In this document: positions 1 to 40,007 of the stretch, one piece after another | Numbering within the stretch: position 1 is the first letter of the stretch | How the letters are laid out: every line of letters begins with the position of its first letter | From: a bacterium | GTDB taxonomy: Bacteria; Patescibacteriota; Minisyncoccia; Phycocordibacterales; UBA9973 | Reading direction: 5' to 3' | DNA length: 40,007 bases | Assembly (NCBI GenBank): GCA_037130655.1 | Contig: JBAXSP010000005.1 | Coordinates: 1-40,007, forward strand | The notes under the pieces: generated by a model | Database searches by the model: none | Told to the model about the DNA's origin: nothing | The model's input: only the letters and a program-made list of their open reading frames with translations | Position numbers and translations under genes: made by a program

Positions 1-61
1 TAATGACTAATGACTAATGACTAATGACTAATGACTAATGACTAATGACTAATGACTAATG
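1..61. repeat. Perfect heptamer tandem repeat (TAATGAC)x8 plus partial unit, running off the window edge
   Basis: Positions 1-56 are eight exact TAATGAC units; 57-61 is TAATG. Confidence 0.98.
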
Positions 62-67
62 GAATAC

Positions 68-98
68 AAAGCGCGGCGACCAAAGGTCGCCGCGCTTT
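68..98 (-). terminator. Perfect 14-bp palindrome with 3-nt loop, likely intrinsic terminator of secY
   Basis: AAAGCGCGGCGACC-AAA-GGTCGCCGCGCTTT, 36 nt downstream of the secY stop. Confidence 0.8.
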
Positions 99-130
99 TA
101 CTAGTCATTGGTCATTGGACACTGGTCATT
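99..130. repeat. Degenerate heptamer repeats, inverted relative to 1-61
   Basis: TAC TAGTCAT TGGTCAT TGGACAC TGGTCAT T between the hairpin and the secY stop. Confidence 0.85.
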
Positions 131-134
131 ACTT

Positions 135-20204: not shown

Positions 20205-21410
20205 TTATTTGATGATTTTTGTCACCACACCAGCACCGACTGTCTTACCTCCTTCACGGATAGCAAAACGCTGTTGATCTTCTAGTGCAACTGGAGAAAC
20301 CAATTTCACTGTCAATTTTACTGTATCACCTGGCATAACCATTTCTGTTCCAGTTGGAAGTGTTGCTTCACCTGTAACGTCAGTAGTACGAACATAAAAT
20401 TGAGGCTTGTAACCGGTGAAGAATGGAGTGTGACGTCCACCTTCTTCCTTTTTCAAGATGTATACTTCACATTCAAATTCTGAGTGAGGAGTAACTGAAC
20501 CTGATTTTGCAAGCACTTGTCCACGTGTAATATCTTCTTTTTTGATACCACGGAGCAAGATACCAGCGTTATCTCCAGCCATACCTTCTTGTAGTTGTTT
20601 GTTGAACATTTCGATACCAGTTACAGTACTTTTTACAGTATCTTTCAAACCGATAATTTCAATTTCTTCACCAACTTTAACGATACCGCGTTCGATTTTA
20701 CCTGTTACCACTGTTCCACGTCCTTCGATTGAGAAGACGTCTTCGATTGGCATAAGGAATGGCTTGTCAGTTTCGCGAACTGGTTCGTCGATGTAGTTAT
20801 CACATGCATCTACGAGTTCGAGTACTTTCTTTGCCCATTCATCATCTACAGATGTTGATTGCAATGCTTTCAAACCTGAACCACGAATAACTGGAGTATT
20901 AGCACCGTCAAAACCTTGTTTTGTAAGGATTTCTCGGATTTCTTCTTCAACCAATTCGATCATGTCTTGGTCTTCAACCATGTCACATTTGTTCAAAAAT
21001 ACAACGATTTTTGGCACACCAACTTGTTTTGCAAGCAAAATGTGTTCACGTGTTTGTGGCATAGCACCATCAGTTGCAGCAACAACGATAATAGCACCGT
21101 CAGTTTGAGCAGCACCAGTAATCATGTTCTTGATGTAGTCCGCGTGACCTGGCATATCAACGTGAGCGTAGTGACGCTTTGGAGTTGTATATTCAGAGTG
21201 GTGGAGTGAAATAGTGATTCCACGAGCCTTTTCTTCTGGAGCCTTGTCGATACTATCGATTGCTTCAACGCGAGCTGAATAACCGTTTCCTTTGTTCATG
21301 TCTAACACGTGCAAAATAGCCGCTGTAAGCGTTGTTTTTCCGTGGTCAACGTGTCCCATAGTACCAATGTTTACGTGTGGTTTACTACGATCAAATACTT
21401 CTTGAGCCAT
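20205..21410 (-). CDS. tuf: Elongation factor Tu
   Basis: [34 protein letters not shown] and [10 protein letters not shown] motifs. Confidence 0.99.
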
Positions 21411-21542: not shown

Positions 21543-21657
21543 CTCCGCTCGATACGATTTCTTGGAAAAGGACGGAATATTTTTGTGGTCAAAAATTTCC
21601 TCATACTCAGAGCCGAGCTCTTCCGTAGGCCATTTCCAAGAAACGTATCTCGCTCCG
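21543..21657. repeat. Branched long inverted-repeat element (REP-like or structured ncRNA)
   Basis: GATACG/CGTATC, TTTCTTGGAAA/TTTCCAAGAAA and ACGGAA/TTCCGT stems enclosing two small hairpins. Confidence 0.6.
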
Positions 21658-23544: not shown

Positions 23545-25704
23545 TTACTTACGATTTTTTACAATTTCATCTTCTACGTTTTTCGGTACGATATCGTAAC
23601 GAACGAATTCCATGGTGAATCCTGCACGTCCTTCAGTCATAGAACGAAGTTGTGTCATGTATCCGAACATTTCAGAAAGTGGCACAACGGCTTTGATTGC
23701 TTTGTTCATTCCACGATCTTCCATACCTTCGATAAGACCACGTTTTGATGAGAGTGAACCAGTCACATCTCCCATGAATTTTTCAGGAGTAACTACTTCA
23801 ACTTTCATCATCGGCTCAAGGATCACTGGACGAGCCATTTTGGCTGCGTCTTGCATTGCCATAGAAGCTGCAATTTTGAAGGCCATTTCGTTTGAGTCAA
23901 CATCGTGGTATGAACCGTCGTATAGATCAACAGACACATCCACCATTTTGAATCCAGCAATAACACCACGATCCAATCCTTCACGGAATCCTTTTTCACA
24001 AGCTGGAATGTATTCTTGTGGAATAGCACCTCCTTTGATTGTGTTGACGAATTCGAAGTGATCTTCACGTTTGACACTCTTCGGCAAATCAGCGATTTGT
24101 TCTTTTGAAAGAGACATATCCATTGGCTTCACGCGAATCTTCACGTGACCGTAGTTTCCACGTCCTCCAGATTGTTTGATGTACTTACCTTCAACATCTG
24201 CAGTTCCTTGAATTGTTTCGCGGTATGCAACTTGTGGTTTACCAACGTTTGCTTCAACAGAGAATTCACGCTTCATACGATCAACAATGATTTCCAAGTG
24301 CAGTTCTCCCATACCTGAAATAATTGTTTCGTTTGTTTCTGGATCAGTTGTTACGCGGAATGTTGGGTCTTCTTGTACCAAACGAGAGAGTGCCATACCC
24401 ATTTTTTCTTGGTCAGCTTTTGTTTTTGGTTCAATACGAAGTGAGATAACTGGTTCTGGGAACACAATACGATATAGTTCGATTGGATTTGCTTCTTCAC
24501 ACAATGTGTCAGAAGTAATTGTTTCCTTGAGACCTACCGCTGCTGCGATTTCTCCAGCAAACACTTTTTTCACTTCTTCACGTTCGTTGGCGTGCATACG
24601 TAGAATACGTCCGATACGTTCGCGATTTCCTGTACGAGGATTGTACACATAAGAACCTGCTTCAACACTACCTGAATACACACGGAAGAAAATCAATTGT
24701 CCAACGAATGGGTCAGTCGCGACTTTGAAAGCCAATGCTGAGAAAGGAGCTTTGTCGTCAGCTGGACGAGTAAGTGGTTCTTCTGTGTCTGGATGAACTC
24801 CACCGATTGCTGGAATATCTGTTGGAGATGGGAGGTAGTCAACCACCGCATCGAGTACCAATTGAACACCTTTGTTCTTGAGTGCTGAACCAACGAATAC
24901 TGGGAAAATTTGGTTTGCAATAACTGCCTTACGCAATTCAACCTTAAGCACTGCTTCAGGGATTTCTTTGCCTTCGAGATAGTCATTCATCAATGCTTCA
25001 TTGTTGGCAACGATAGCTTCGATCATTTCAGCACGAAGTTCTTGTGCTTGTGCCATCATATTTTCTGGGATTTCTTTTTCGATAACTTTATTTCCCATAT
25101 CACCTTCGAAGTAGAATGCCTTCATTTTGAGGAGGTCTACTGCACCTTCATGGTTTTCTTCAAGACCGATTGGAATTTGCATTCGAACTGCTTTCTTTGA
25201 AAGACGATCAAGGATTGTTTTGTATGAGTGGTCAAATGACGCACCAGTACGGTCGAGTTTGTTGATAAAACAAATACGTGGAACATTTGCTTCGTCAGCA
25301 TAACGCCAGTTTGTTTCTGATTGTGGTTCTACTCCAGCAACGCCGTCGAACACGACAACAGCACCGTCGAGCACGCGAAGAGAACGCTTCACTTCTACAG
25401 TGAAGTCGATGTGACCAGGTGTGTCAATGATATTAAAACGATATTTTTTTGATGTATCTTTCTTGTCTTCTACATAAGTAGGTGTCCAGAAACAAGTAAT
25501 AGCCGCAGAAGTAATAGTAATTCCACGTTCCTTTTCTTGTTCCATCCAGTCAGTTGTAGTCTCACCATCGTGCACTTCCCCAATTTTGTGAGAAACACCA
25601 GTATAGTAGAGCACGCGCTCTGACGTTGTTGTCTTACCCGCATCGATGTGGGCGATAATTCCAAAATTTCTAACTCTCTCCAAAGGATAATCCCGTTTGT
25701 CCAT
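23545..25704 (-). CDS. fusA: Elongation factor G
   Basis: [27 protein letters not shown] and GMGELHLEI motifs. Confidence 0.99.
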
Positions 25705-35587: not shown

Positions 35588-36160
35588 TTACAGCTGTGTC
35601 TGCCCGAGTGACATATTGATACGCTCAACATATTCTTCTCGTTTCAATTGTGCAATCACTTGTTCCATCTGGTCGATATGTAAATCAAGCAAGTTCTTAT
35701 CTGATTCTTCATGATCCCAATACCCAAGAATGTGCAATAGGCGCACAATCAAAATGATTTCATATTCCCGAAACAAAGAACTGTATACAGTTTTATCTAA
35801 TTGCTCTACCGCAAGTACATCACCAAACAATTGTTCATGCGTTCCTTCTCCTTGAATCAATCTCCTGATAAGTCTGAGCCACTTCCCAATCATTTTATTC
35901 CACGAGACATCTTCAGAGAAAACTTTTCCAATAGTCGAAACACTGCCAATCCGCCAAAATTCTTTTCCACGAATTAAATCCACCTTGATAACCGAACCTT
36001 CCTGCAGTGCGTAGCGCTGACGTGATTGCAGTCGTCGCGTTCCTTGAGCGGTTGCAATAATCAAACCAAAATCTTCCGTATACAATTCATACAGACGATT
36101 GGCTTCCCCAATATTGCCGTAACCAAGTACGACAGCTTTGGTGTGATAAATGTGGTACAT
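35588..36160 (-). CDS. recO: DNA repair protein RecO (short)
   Basis: TKAVVLG...GEANRLYELYTEDFGLI.A.AQG.R OB-fold pattern; LLHILGY. Confidence 0.8.
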   Translation of the reverse strand: MYHIYHTKAVVLGYGNIGEANRLYELYTEDFGLIIATAQGTRRLQSRQRYALQEGSVIKVDLIRGKEFWRIGSVSTIGKVFSEDVSWNKMIGKWLRLIRRLIQGEGTHEQLFGDVLAVEQLDKTVYSSLFREYEIILIVRLLHILGYWDHEESDKNLLDLHIDQMEQVIAQLKREEYVERINMSLGQTQL

Positions 36161-36202
36161 ATAATACGGCTATTTTCCCATACATATAACGGTTTTTATC
36201 TA

Positions 36203-36232
36203 TTGACATATAGATAATTAATGTGATATAAT
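36203..36232 (+). promoter_or_regulatory. Consensus sigma70 promoter
   Basis: TTGACA-18 bp-TATAAT with TG extended -10. Confidence 0.75.
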
Positions 36233-36262
36233 ATTGGCAGGTAAAAAAACAAGCCAGCTCTT

Positions 36263-36712
36263 ATGAAAAAAGAAAAAATTACTGGACCCTTATGGATCCG
36301 CACCGAAAACACCGAGGCCGAAAATTACTTGGTTGGTGTCCCTTTAAACAATCTCTTCACAATATTCTTTATGAGTAGTTCTGGAGAATTTCTGAATCCT
36401 GCTAACCCTCAAATTTGGCATGATTTCAAAAGATCAGCAGAGGGCACTGAGCGAGAAGTTTCTCAAGTACCGAACAACTTGTTTGATGATGTAATGGACC
36501 ATGCAATAAAATCTCAAATTGCTATCAAAAACAAATGGGATGTAAAAATCTTTGTTCTTACTGGAGAAATGATGCCTCCTAAACAAAAAGATCATACTGA
36601 AAAAACAGTTTCAATGTTGGAAAAAAATACAACAACTGAATCAGAAACTAGGACAACTTTCAGTATGTCAGAAGTGCCAGGTTTTCAAAAACTGTTAGAA
36701 AAAACTGCTTAA
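36263..36712 (+). CDS. Hypothetical protein
   Basis: 149-aa ORF with its own promoter and terminator; no motif recognised. Confidence 0.7.
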   Translation: MKKEKITGPLWIRTENTEAENYLVGVPLNNLFTIFFMSSSGEFLNPANPQIWHDFKRSAEGTEREVSQVPNNLFDDVMDHAIKSQIAIKNKWDVKIFVLTGEMMPPKQKDHTEKTVSMLEKNTTTESETRTTFSMSEVPGFQKLLEKTA

Positions 36713-36729
36713 AGATGTTCATGTTAAGC

Positions 36730-36757
36730 AAAAGCCAACTCTTACGAGTTGGCTTTT
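36730..36757. terminator. Bidirectional terminator
   Basis: AAAAGCCAACTC-TTAC-GAGTTGGCTTTT (GTAA loop on the minus strand). Confidence 0.85.
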
Positions 36758-36874
36758 TTATTTACATTTCTAAACAGGATGATATTTTCGATAGACTTTT
36801 CGCCAGAGCGGATACAACAAGAAAATGAATACACCAGCAAGAGCACTCCACGCGCCGAGCAAGAAGAAATAGAT

Positions 36875-36947
36875 CTTTAGTCGAAAAATTTTAACAACTT
36901 TGTTGCTAAAATTCTTTCAACACGAATTTTCTTTGCAGGAAAATTCG
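36875..36947. mobile_element. Approximately 70-nt double-hairpin insertion (insert 2)
   Basis: CGAATTTT/AAAATTCG stem plus an 18-19 bp stem with a C-AAA-G loop; shifts the frame by +1. Exact ends are uncertain. Confidence 0.5.
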
Positions 36948-36968
36948 CCAACACAATTCTTTGGCATA

Positions 36969-37075
36969 GAAATAAAAGCTTCAGTGATATAGAGCATCTA
37001 TGTACTGAACTTATATTTCGTCTTCGACTCGGACGATGTGAAAGTGATTACACTTTCACTCGCTCCTCGCTCGAC
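36969..37075. mobile_element. 107-nt double-hairpin insertion with 7-bp direct repeat (insert 1)
   Basis: GAAATAA at 36969-36975 and 37076-37082; stems TATTTCGTC/GACGAAATA, GTGAAAGTG/CACTTTCAC and TTCAGT/ACTGAA. Confidence 0.65.
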
Positions 37076-37358
37076 GAAATAATAATTCAATTTCCAATAG
37101 CACTGGACTTCGACTTTTCGATCGATGTTATATCGTTTTGATTCACGTTCGTGTAGTCGATCAGCAATCGAGGTGTGTCCGAATGTCAGAAAGACCGCAA
37201 GTACCCCAAGCCATTCCACCAGTCCTTTGTGTGAAATCAAGGCAATGGCAATCAACACTCCCCCGACAAAGACATATTCAATGACATATGTTTGCACACG
37301 AAAAGTCTTTTTGATTTTTAGTACTAGTTCAACCAAATTTCTTCCAAAACTTTTCATC

Positions 37359-40007
37359 TTATTTTTCAATACTTACTTTATAAACTTCGGTGTCAATTTT
37401 TATTTCATTACTTCCATCAGCAAAAATAACTTCACGGATTTGGACGGTCTTTTTTAGATCAGCTTCAAATTCTTCAACCAAGGTTTTTGCATTTTCTGAA
37501 ATTGTCAGATTGATTGTGTCTTCTGGAGTCAGTCCTGTTTCTTTTCGGAGGTCTTGCAATGCACGAACAAGTTCGCGATAGTTTCCTTCTCGTTTTAGTT
37601 CTGGGGTGATTTCTGTATCAAGAACAAATCCCTCACTATTTCCATATTCAACACCTTTAATATTCAATTCATCACAAATAATTTGAGTATATTCGTCTTT
37701 CAACTTTTGACTTTCAACTTTCAACTGATTGAGTGGTTGTCTTACTGGAATCCCGGTACTTTTTCTCAAAGCATTTCCTTGTGTACAAATATCACGAACT
37801 TTTTGCATTTCTTCCAAAACAGCTGTATCTACTTTTTGAATTTCCGGCCAACTTGTTAGATGCACAGAAATTTGATCATTTTCTGTTCGCAATTTCAACC
37901 ACAAATCTTCGGCACTAAATGGTGCAAACGGTGCAAGAATTTTTGCGAAGTTTTTGAGTACATAATACAACGTTTGTTTCGCCTCTTTGTCACCGTCTTT
38001 CAAACGATCACGAGAACGTCGCAAATACCACGTCGAAAGATCTCCAACGAAATCACGAATCTCACGCACTGGTTCGAAAGTTTTGTAATTATCTAGACCC
38101 TCTGTTGCTTTTTCTACCAAGAAATTAAATCTTGCAAGAATCCATTGATCTAAGACATTTGTAGGCACTAGGCTCTGGGCACTAGGCTCTAGCGAAACAT
38201 CTCTATATAGCTCATAGAATGAAAGAATATTGTATGTCAGCGTAAATACTTTTCCTTCCAATTCTTTCACCGTCTTCTCATCAAAGTTCTTACTATCCCC
38301 TGGTTGATTGACTGAGTACATCCATAAACGGAGCGTATCCACACCAAACTTATCCATTGCTTCCCACGGGTTCACAATGTTGCCGATAGACTTCGACATC
38401 TTCTTGCCTTCTGCATCGAGTAAGTGTCCGAGACAAATGACGTTCTTGTACGCCTTGCCTTTGCCCATCAATACGCCGATTGCATGAAGTGTATAGAACC
38501 AGCCACGAGTTTGATCAATCGCTTCTGAAATAAAGTCTGCTGGATAACTATGTGATTTGGTAAAGATTCCACCATCGATATCTTTTTTGTGTTCGAAAGG
38601 ATAATGATCTTGCGCAAATGGCATTGCACCACTATCAAACCACACGTCCATTACTTCTTTGATGCGATGAAATTCTTTGCCATCTTTTTCAAGAATTACT
38701 TCATCGATAAATGGTCGGTGTGGGTCGAGTTCATAATTTTCATTGTGCGGAACTGGAACGAAATCAATCGCTCGAACTTCGGCATTTTTCATATCATCAA
38801 AATGCGCATTATTTTCTTGTGCAATCAATGCATATGTCTCGTCTATCGAAAGCCCTGCCCCACCTGAACGAAGCATCCATGCTGGACCACCGTGTGTGAC
38901 GAACAAAATATTTTTGTCTTTATATGTTGTTTCGTATTCATACAACAATTCCATCACACGAAGTTTGATGTCGAGGTAAGATTCATCACCGTCATTTTTT
39001 GCATCAACATATTCTTTTGTTTTTGGAAATGCATCATGATACTCGCCCCATGTTTTTCCTTCGAATGAATAGACACCGAATTCTTTCAGTCGTTCATCAA
39101 AGATTGTTTGTTCATCAGAAAGACCGAGCACTTCTTTGACGATTTGTGCTGTTTCTCTCGTACGAACAAATGGCGAAATAACCATCATGTCGATTTTTTT
39201 ATCTTTCAAATCTTCCGCTGAAACACGAACTTGTTCTTTTCCATTATCAGTGAGGTGATGTGGATTGTCTGGATGTGTGCTCACTTGCCAGTGCAAATTA
39301 TGTTCGGCTTCTCCGTGACGCATTACGAAATACTTGTTACCAGATTTCTTCGTATATTTTTTGAGTGTTTCAAATGAATTGACGAACAATCGCTCACCAT
39401 CAGCAGACTGCCAAATCGGAAGTGGTGTCCCCCAATATCGTTCGCGAGAAATTGCCCAGTCTTTGATATTATCGAGCCATTCACCGAAACGTCCCTCACG
39501 AATGTGTGCAGGTTCCCAATTGATGTCTTCATTTTCTTTGACCAATTCATCATGCAGTTTTGACATTGCAATGTACCAAGAATCTCGCGCGTAATATAGA
39601 AGCGGAGTTTTACAACGCCAGCAGTGCGGATATGAGTGTTCGTATTTTTCTTTTTTGAACAAAAGTCCACGTCCTGCCAAATCTTTAATGATATCGATTG
39701 CAACTTGTTCGTCTTTCGCAAAACGAGTTTCAAGAAAATCTGTTCCTGCAATAAAATGCCCGGTGTCATCAACAGTGTGGAATTTTGGCAAATTATTTTT
39801 TGTCGCCACGTCGAAGTCTTCTGCTCCGTACATTGGCGCAATATGCACAATACCGGTTCCGTCAGTTGTAGTAACAAAATCTGCAGACACAACCTTGAAT
39901 GCATTCGGTAATTTTTCTTTTTGTTCACCAGAAATAGTGTTTAGAAGATATGGATACAATGGTTCGTATTCCATTCCAATCATTTCACTACCTTTGTGTT
40001 CTGCTAT
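37359..40007 (-). CDS. ileS: Isoleucine--tRNA ligase (type 2-like), 5'-partial, with an inserted histidine phosphatase domain
   Basis: GTGIVHIAP, YPHCWRC, WAISRERYWGTP, DVWFDSG, DQTRGWF and KMSKS motifs; frame stays open to the window end. Confidence 0.97.
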   Translation of the reverse strand: MAEHKGSEMIGMEYEPLYPYLLNTISGEQKEKLPNAFKVVSADFVTTTDGTGIVHIAPMYGAEDFDVATKNNLPKFHTVDDTGHFIAGTDFLETRFAKDEQVAIDIIKDLAGRGLLFKKEKYEHSYPHCWRCKTPLLYYARDSWYIAMSKLHDELVKENEDINWEPAHIREGRFGEWLDNIKDWAISRERYWGTPLPIWQSADGERLFVNSFETLKKYTKKSGNKYFVMRHGEAEHNLHWQVSTHPDNPHHLTDNGKEQVRVSAEDLKDKKIDMMVISPFVRTRETAQIVKEVLGLSDEQTIFDERLKEFGVYSFEGKTWGEYHDAFPKTKEYVDAKNDGDESYLDIKLRVMELLYEYETTYKDKNILFVTHGGPAWMLRSGGAGLSIDETYALIAQENNAHFDDMKNAEVRAIDFVPVPHNENYELDPHRPFIDEVILEKDGKEFHRIKEVMDVWFDSGAMPFAQDHYPFEHKKDIDGGIFTKSHSYPADFISEAIDQTRGWFYTLHAIGVLMGKGKAYKNVICLGHLLDAEGKKMSKSIGNIVNPWEAMDKFGVDTLRLWMYSVNQPGDSKNFDEKTVKELEGKVFTLTYNILSFYELYRDVSLEPSAQSLVPTNVLDQWILARFNFLVEKATEGLDNYKTFEPVREIRDFVGDLSTWYLRRSRDRLKDGDKEAKQTLYYVLKNFAKILAPFAPFSAEDLWLKLRTENDQISVHLTSWPEIQKVDTAVLEEMQKVRDICTQGNALRKSTGIPVRQPLNQLKVESQKLKDEYTQIICDELNIKGVEYGNSEGFVLDTEITPELKREGNYRELVRALQDLRKETGLTPEDTINLTISENAKTLVEEFEADLKKTVQIREVIFADGSNEIKIDTEVYKVSIEK
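37697..37726. repeat. Intragenic heptamer repeat in ileS
   Basis: CTTTCAA CTTTTGA CTTTCAA CTTTCAA, encoding LKVESQKLK on the minus strand. Confidence 0.75.
38162..38192. repeat. Intragenic heptamer repeat in ileS
   Basis: TAGGCAC TAGGCTC TGGGCAC TAGGCTC TAG, encoding SLEPSAQSLVP on the minus strand. Confidence 0.85.

Follow-up and report, generated by a model that had tools for sequence, protein, structure and literature searches.

Is the small gene downstream of ileS in this genome broken, or does it still work by discarding parts of itself? The gene lies on the minus strand of a 40,007-nt stretch of patescibacterial DNA (hereafter the window), and an earlier note made from the sequence alone described it as interrupted twice by short, fully folded inserts. 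Two explanations were offered there: a pseudogene hit twice by a small palindromic mobile element, or a functional gene whose inserts are removed at the level of the RNA or the ribosome. The first has gained ground, as the inserts are absent from 26 orthologues and both belong to repeat families with members elsewhere. The second found no positive support: the hallmarks of translational bypassing fail and Rfam offers neither intron nor ribozyme. We put at roughly 0.78 the probability that the locus records a double insertion of REP/MITE-like elements, a reading drawn from sequence comparison in which the gene would now be either a pseudogene of recent origin or a truncated allele.

The interrupted gene and its reconstruction

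On the minus strand, the ileS stop codon (TAA, 37361–37359) is followed after one base by the ATG at 37357, from which, as had been claimed, an open reading frame runs into a hairpin and then into a stop. Its first 94 codons (segment 1, minus strand, 37076–37357 in the ORF list; MKSFGRNL...CYWKLNYYF) specify two predicted transmembrane (TM) helices and a conserved FGHxxIAxRLxERE motif. After CYWKLNYYF, frame 0 continues as VERGASESVITFTSSESKTKYKFST (VERGASES...KFST) up to a premature in-frame TAG (minus strand, 36998–37000), and three-frame translation, which located this stop, placed a second one, TGA 36919–36917, within insert 2. The predicted product as it stands has 119 aa, made up of 94 native residues and a 25-aa tail (VERGASESVITFTSSESK); with TAG and TGA both in frame 0 through the inserts, it would lack the third TM helix. 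Read-through under another genetic code was considered and rejected, because TAG and TGA would both need to be sense codons.

Removal of 107 nt (37075–36969), including one copy of TTATTTC, joins YYF to YAKELCW, as confirmed by translation. The peptide YAKELCW (codons 95–101) is encoded by segment 2, a 21-nt piece in frame +2 that lies between the inserts (minus strand, 36948–36968; three-frame translation). Where the earlier note had proposed taking out about 70 nt more, removal of 36947–36878 leads from W into K-IYFFLLGAWSALAGVFIFLLYPLWRKVYRKYHPV*. This is segment 3 (minus strand, 36770–36877; codons 102–136 plus TAG, delimited by homologue alignment), which lies beyond the premature stops, is again in frame 0 and encodes a third TM helix and a basic tail. 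Its stop codon (36772–36770) stands 12 nt before the gene's own bidirectional intrinsic terminator hairpin (36730–36757), found by a terminator scan and conserved in the orthologous locus L002. With both inserts removed (107 + 70 nt), the protein has 136 aa, the same as in the nearest orthologues, and its last 34 residues are identical to those of L009; no family name for it was obtained from Pfam or NCBIfam.

Logan's independent assembly of a public run contains the identical interrupted sequence at ~14x depth; that run may come from the very sample that yielded the window, and no contig with an alternative joint at the locus was seen in that assembly. Palindromes are known to give rise to artefacts in MDA and assembly, and a chimeric or fold-back sequence might on that account have entered the contig during amplification or assembly. 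The identical Logan sequence, with no competing joint, makes an assembly artefact unlikely; the inserts, moreover, truly belong to families that occur in many other samples, and the 7-nt duplication that accompanies insert 1 is precise. We give an artefactual origin next to no chance and treat the inserts as genuine DNA.

Uninterrupted orthologues and empty sites

Searching with the 119-aa ORF yielded another 24 homologues, 121–147 aa long, and one of 77 aa, and a scan of the GTDB species representatives gave 25 loci, all of them one uninterrupted stretch matched essentially end to end. The earlier note had expected homologues to continue through YAKE..W into the helix containing GAW; all 24 full-length homologues do so without interruption, reading ...CYWKL.YYF-[YV].KE..W-[LF]-.YF...GA[WYS]SA...PV. 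Neither insert occurs in any of the 26 orthologues examined; three of these are close relatives, at 85–90% identity, and they read ...CYWKLNYYF-YAKELCW-L-IYF(F/L)LLGAW...RKYHPV without a break.

The orthologue P0002, which is 87% identical, reads YYFYAKELCWLIYFLLLGAWSALAGVFIFLLYPLWRKVYRKYHPV, and DNA alignment of its locus, L002, leaves two clean gaps opposite the window. Segment 1 shares 85–87% nucleotide identity with the uninterrupted orthologues L002 and L009, and the YAKELCW peptide is identical in P0002 and L009. The nearest relative, L009, is syntenic with the window (ileS, the small gene, recO and onward) at 76–85% nucleotide identity, and its empty sites read AAT TAT TAT TTC TAC GCC AAA GAA TTA TGC TGG CTG ATT TAC TTC TTC. 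A contig in run X4 represents the third relative: its joint runs from 36968 to 37076 and skips 107 nt, with a 7-nt positional ambiguity, and its second empty site reads TGG CTG ATC TAT TTC TTC. About 810 nt lie between the end of ileS and the small gene in L009 (L009:9180–9992), where the window has one base.

Only 21 nt of native gene sequence separate insert 1 from insert 2. A single composite insertion was rejected, because the 21-nt YAKELCW piece is native and in the right order; this piece excludes a single event and leaves two independent insertions.

Folding of the insert region

The 241-nt region folds at −73 kcal/mol, against −47 ± 4 kcal/mol for shuffled sequences (z = −5.9; 0 of 200 shuffles as good), and forms four hairpins: A (37081–37014), B (37012–36976), C (36948–36922) and D (36916–36884). 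Hairpins A and B account for almost the whole of insert 1, and C and D for almost the whole of insert 2, as the earlier note had described. Two of its finer observations also hold: insert 1 can pair with the end of the upstream coding segment (TATTTCGTC/GACGAAATA), and hairpin D contains G-U pairs and is accompanied by a CGA...CGA repeat 64 nt apart. Hairpin D, with two G-U pairs, folds at −11.3 kcal/mol in the sense strand and at −4.8 kcal/mol in the antisense strand; B prefers the antisense strand, and A and C are neutral. The strand bias of folding was discarded as a test for RNA-level function, since the hairpins disagree (D sense, B antisense).

The inserts might be removed from the mRNA, whether as mini-introns, by a ribozyme or through cutting by a host nuclease followed by ligation. 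Such removal would suit the dense structure, the pairing of insert 1 with the last 6–9 nt of the upstream exon, which is reminiscent of an internal guide sequence, and the two G-U pairs of hairpin D, which favour a sense-strand RNA. However, hairpin B is better on the antisense strand, so that no consistent strand bias exists; inserts of 107 and 70 nt are far below the size of any known self-splicing intron; and the junction of insert 2 is not clean at the DNA level. Other members of the family are intergenic, where splicing would be pointless. No Rfam intron, ribozyme or other family came near its gathering threshold: a search of 36000–38000 against Rfam 15 at E-value ≤10 returned 18 matches, all far below gathering scores and all to families other than introns and ribozymes, and a gathering-score scan of the whole window returned nothing. 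We consider excision from the RNA highly improbable.

Insert 1 and its repeat family

Insert 1 (minus strand, 36969–37075) is absent from L002, L009 and the X4 contig, and relative to them is an exact addition of 107 nt, including one TTATTTC copy, with TTATTTC on both sides and no other change; its boundary slides by 7 nt, up to 37082–36976. It is made up of unit A, a long bulged hairpin (minus strand, 37010–37082), which uses the TTATTTC of the gene itself, a sequence shared with L009, as its 5′ foot, and unit B, a second hairpin delimited by folding that is variable within the family (minus strand, 36976–37012). Unit B is followed by a T-rich 3′ core, TTTATTTC (36976–36969), in an arrangement that is weakly terminator-like; at the position of unit B, L040 and L052 carry GC-rich terminator-like hairpins and then (A)CC-TTTATT.

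Hairpin A occurs on at least five other contigs of the same metagenome, at 80–93% identity and with unrelated flanks. These contigs, which match 37010/37016–37082, have a similar depth of 11–15x, except for two short contigs at 2.5x. Of nine further freshwater, riverine and groundwater runs, all but X5 also contain copies of hairpin A, most of them several; these copies too have unrelated flanks, and their alignments mostly end exactly at 37082. The paired positions 37045/37052 and 37043/37054 of the apical stem vary among copies, and we read these changes as compensatory.

Copies at the level of full sequence were obtained by a pattern scan of metagenome contigs, followed by a search with a covariance model built from its matches. 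Pattern scan and model gave L061:11217–11304, L040:13686–13878 (two tandem units), L040:3144–3232 and L052:5493–5580, and the model gave L022:7854–7942. These external copies, three of which lie in L040, score 50–99 bits with the covariance model, and unit A of the window scores 79 bits. All six external loci are intergenic, situated directly past a stop codon or past a terminator hairpin and T-tract.

Across copies, hairpin A measures 67–73 nt. The conserved part is its lower stem (TTTCGTC-GAGCGAGGAGC ... GTCCGAG.GAAGAC-GAAA), while the apical stem is wholly different in sequence between copies and always keeps its pairing. One to several variable hairpins follow, the last of them GC-rich and terminator-like in L040 and L052, and the unit ends at its 3′ side in (G/A)ACC-TTTATT(T/G)(C). 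The internal loops that juxtapose GA (GAGCGAGGAGC opposite GUCCGAG.GAAGAC; 37073–37061 and 37035–37021 in the window) are nearly invariant across copies. They look like a motif for protein or tertiary contacts, possibly a K-turn-like one.

Direct repeats of TTTATT(T/G)C bound the units at five of the six external loci, a recurrence that makes this sequence either a strongly preferred target or a part of the element. The core can pair with the 3′ arm of hairpin A, so that each unit can be written as X in the flank, its inverted copy X′ inside and X again at the 3′ end; in the window these are the gene's TTATTTC, GAAATA and TTTATTTC, respectively. At L040:3144, both bounding cores are TTTATTG, and hairpin A has GACGCAA in its 3′ arm in place of GACGAAA: the change in the core is matched in the arm, which indicates that X, X′ and 3′ X co-vary. 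As a separate observation, L040:13686–13878 consists of two perfect tandem units of 105 nt, each with hairpin A, a GC-rich terminator-like hairpin and the TTTATTTC core. A unit of this family can duplicate head to tail at its core.

Within the 40-kb window, neither blastn-short nor an unfiltered search with the covariance model revealed another copy. In the 360 kb that surround the orthologues, the covariance model detected one copy (L022) and blastn none. A metagenome scan with a 21-mer from the 5′ arm of hairpin A gave no matches; another, with a two-foot pattern, picked out 35 stretches, and the genuine copies among them are confined to L040, L052 and L061. Among viral contigs, an 18-mer had no matches and a 17-mer only chance matches in GC-rich phage contigs. 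The family as a whole is widespread in freshwater and groundwater Patescibacteria.

Between two genes elsewhere in the window lies a branched inverted-repeat element (21543–21657) with the ends CTCCGCTCGATACG / CGTATCTCGCTCCG, which share a CTCGCTCC/GGAGCGAG motif with hairpin A. The covariance model for A misses this element, which may be a distant relative belonging to a different family.

The question of skipping by the ribosome

Programmed bypassing would have the ribosome take off at UUC (Phe94), land on the UUC 107 nt further on and then hop 64 nt from CGA to CGA, yielding the complete protein. Matched codons do occur at both inserts, the take-off codons stand at the foot of stable hairpins, and taking out both inserts leaves an intact downstream segment in the right frame. 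The earlier note had listed the matched TTC codons as a possible sign of bypassing, an interpretation that does not hold up: the UUC pair lies within the TTTATTTC core repeat, and TTC is part of the TTTATT(T/G)C that bounds intergenic copies too. Given the X/X′/X arrangement of those intergenic copies, both the pairing with the exon and the matching TTC codons belong to the usual build of the family, and neither feature is specific to a coding gap.

Other properties of the locus also stand against bypassing. Neither take-off codon is followed by a stop or a rare codon, the next codons being GUC (9.7 per 1000 in the window's long ORFs) and AUU (39.8 per 1000, the commonest of those checked). 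The gaps of 107 and 64–70 nt are about twice the known maximum: the gap of T4 gene 60 is 50 nt long and the yeast mitochondrial byps measure 27–55 nt, and we know of no documented efficient bypass as long as 107 or 64–70 nt. A hop from CGA to CGA would add two residues seen in no homologue, the inefficiencies of two serial hops would multiply, and neither gap is conserved in any relative. Bypassing thus fails on three of four testable hallmarks (slow codon, gap length and conservation), with identical codons as the fourth; it is not supported, and we allow it a very slim chance.

It might still be supposed that the gene is alive and that its elements are skipped, by two serial hops between the duplicated core codons or by excision from the RNA, guided by pairing of X′ with the core copies at the two borders. 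The sole hint for such skipping is that the downstream segment is intact, in frame and changed only synonymously, and we think it very unlikely. If it were true, a widespread patescibacterial repeat family would be a bacterial counterpart of the mitochondrial byps.

Insert 2

The account of the locus as a double insertion extends to insert 2 (minus strand, 36878–36947), which comprises hairpins C and D and adds 70 nt relative to the orthologues; L002, L009 and the X4 contig have the site empty. The junction bears a scar, in that C...AG flanks the insert in place of the CTG/TTG codon of the orthologues. The earlier note had cautioned that these junctions cannot be fixed from the sequence, and indeed removals of 64, 67 and 70 nt all leave the tail in frame, so that the borders can be placed no more closely.

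Elsewhere, the X4 contig carries a whole-unit copy of insert 2 (36882–36948, 11 mismatches). In the sample's DNA run (X1), one contig carries a partial copy, about 11 nt past a hairpin, in which hairpin C is joined to another second hairpin while the TTTTTCGAC end is unchanged. These relatives are contig pieces aligned to the region.

State of the gene

On the branch leading to the window, segments 2 and 3 have acquired seven synonymous and no non-synonymous changes and no indels; segment 1 has 14 synonymous and four non-synonymous changes. The earlier note had looked to relaxed selection on the downstream segments as evidence against a functional gene. No such decay is found, a result that fits recent insertion and continued translation equally well: either the insertions would be recent relative to the ~6% branch, or the tail would still be under selection. 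Together the inserts measure 177 nt (107 + 70), a multiple of three, which brings the tail back into frame, an outcome with a chance of 1 in 3. For this organism, three metatranscriptome runs from the same study yielded only pieces of 30–40 nt, at 20421–21180 and 24392–24432.

The 119-aa truncated protein, with two TM helices and a new 25-aa tail, might itself be functional, or the gene might be split, with a second part translated from TTG 36862. The N-terminal 94 residues hold most of the invariant motifs, and the ORF was called as a protein in an independent assembly. On the other hand, the third helix contributes 14 of the 40 invariant columns (Y104 to R131), so that its loss is unlikely to be neutral, and no obvious ribosome-binding site was seen by eye upstream of TTG 36862. 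We regard a working truncated or split gene as unlikely. From the double insertion and the premature stops we infer instead that function has been lost.

The P0025 lineage (L003/L004) carries an in-frame TAA in the same small gene, which hints that the gene can be lost or is dispensable. This TAA (L003:3232–3234, also in L004) stands where homologues have Thr or Ser, with the rest of the gene intact in frame; found in two independent samples, it represents either a nonsense allele or a read-through site.

Comparison with known systems

REPs have a stem of 8–9 bp, span 20–40 bp and lie mostly just downstream of coding regions (PMC3733652). Occasionally they occur inside genes, sometimes twice in one gene, as described for CGTC-tagged REPs (Di Nocera et al., 2013, PMC3733652), and intragenic REPs are listed with the amino acids that they encode, that is, they are read as part of the ORF (PMC3733652). 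The present inserts resemble REPs, REPINs and BIMEs in being short, non-coding, hairpin-forming, multi-copy and mostly situated downstream of ORFs, with stems maintained by apparently compensating changes and two insertions in one gene; in addition, both arms of hairpin A start with CGTC when read from the outside in. They differ in the size of hairpin A (67–73 nt) and in its conserved, asymmetrically bulged lower stem. The CGTC of hairpin A is base-paired, whereas the REP tag (GTAG or CGTC) is unpaired, and the family of insert 1 has extra variable hairpins, a terminator-like 3′ end and a T-rich direct repeat (X/X′/X). Intragenic REPs are read within the ORF, whereas here the frame is broken.

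The Rickettsia palindromic elements (RPEs) are likewise palindromic repeats of bacteria with reduced genomes and can enter protein-coding genes. Their insertions keep the frame and add translated peptide segments to the host protein, whereas frame 0 through the present inserts holds TAG 37000–36998 and TGA 36919–36917.

Insert 1 has a certain likeness to the IS200/IS605-derived PATEs and to HUH transposition, in that terminal inverted repeats are lacking and the ends are rich in hairpins. By analogy, insertion just 3′ of a short constant sequence resembling the element's own 3′ end, and an internal guide-like segment complementary to that short sequence, would be further points in common. IS200/IS605 transposition produces no duplication of the target, whereas the core here, of 7–8 nt, is duplicated, and we regard the likeness to the IS608 mechanism as a possible lead.

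With classical MITEs the inserts share a multi-copy, non-coding nature and presence/absence polymorphism between relatives. The ends of insert 1 (GTCGAG... / ...GAAGCTT), however, are not inverted copies of each other, and those of insert 2 share only CGAA, as judged by eye; a 7-nt direct repeat is present, yet the same TTTATT(T/G)C recurs at five of the six loci. Bypass elements (the T4 gene 60 gap and the byps of Magnusiomyces mitochondria) are also short structured inserts in coding sequence with identical border codons, and a preprint describes both the byps and the gene 60 gap as mobile themselves (bioRxiv 10.1101/2022.08.31.505936). In contrast, the present inserts lack a stop or hungry codon after take-off, create gaps about twice as long, occur in no orthologue and belong to a family that is otherwise intergenic.

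A possible course of events

Two small non-coding hairpin repeats have entered a conserved 136-aa gene encoding three TM helices, in separate events and 21 bp apart. The coding sequence AAT TAT TAT TTC mimics the usual T-rich landing site, and insert 1 went in just behind it. Insertion would be site-specific for the T-rich core, and pairing between X and X′ in single-stranded DNA might guide it, through an HUH-type enzyme (IS200/IS605, RAYT) or through recombination of folded single strands. Insert 2, from a second family, would have come second, either drawn by the terminator-like end of insert 1 or admitted once selection had already relaxed. Translation would now enter insert 1 and end at the TAG, and the gene would be inactivated.

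The locus provides a natural before-and-after record for two small structured repeat families of candidate-phyla-radiation (CPR) bacteria, and the intergenic copies indicate that core, internal complement and terminator-like 3′ end travel together. Taken together, these features constrain the mechanism of insertion and point to a site-specific and possibly pairing-guided process aimed at T-rich gene ends; such elements would be able to destroy genes whose coding sequence mimics the landing site. For annotation, the case suggests that a short ORF in a CPR genome with a cluster of hairpins behind it may be a split gene. A search of the literature found no description of such repeats in Patescibacteria, and what emerges is apparently a set of undescribed hairpin repeat families of the CPR and not a new decoding phenomenon.

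Other features of the window

Two further features of the window may be recorded. The catalytic domain of IleRS carries a complete His_Phos_1 domain (PF00300; minus strand, 38826–39329; residues 227–394 of the partial protein; E = 1e-28). The start of the window (1–131) has a GC hairpin (68–98) flanked by arrayed copies of the 7-mer TAATGAC and of its inverted partner.
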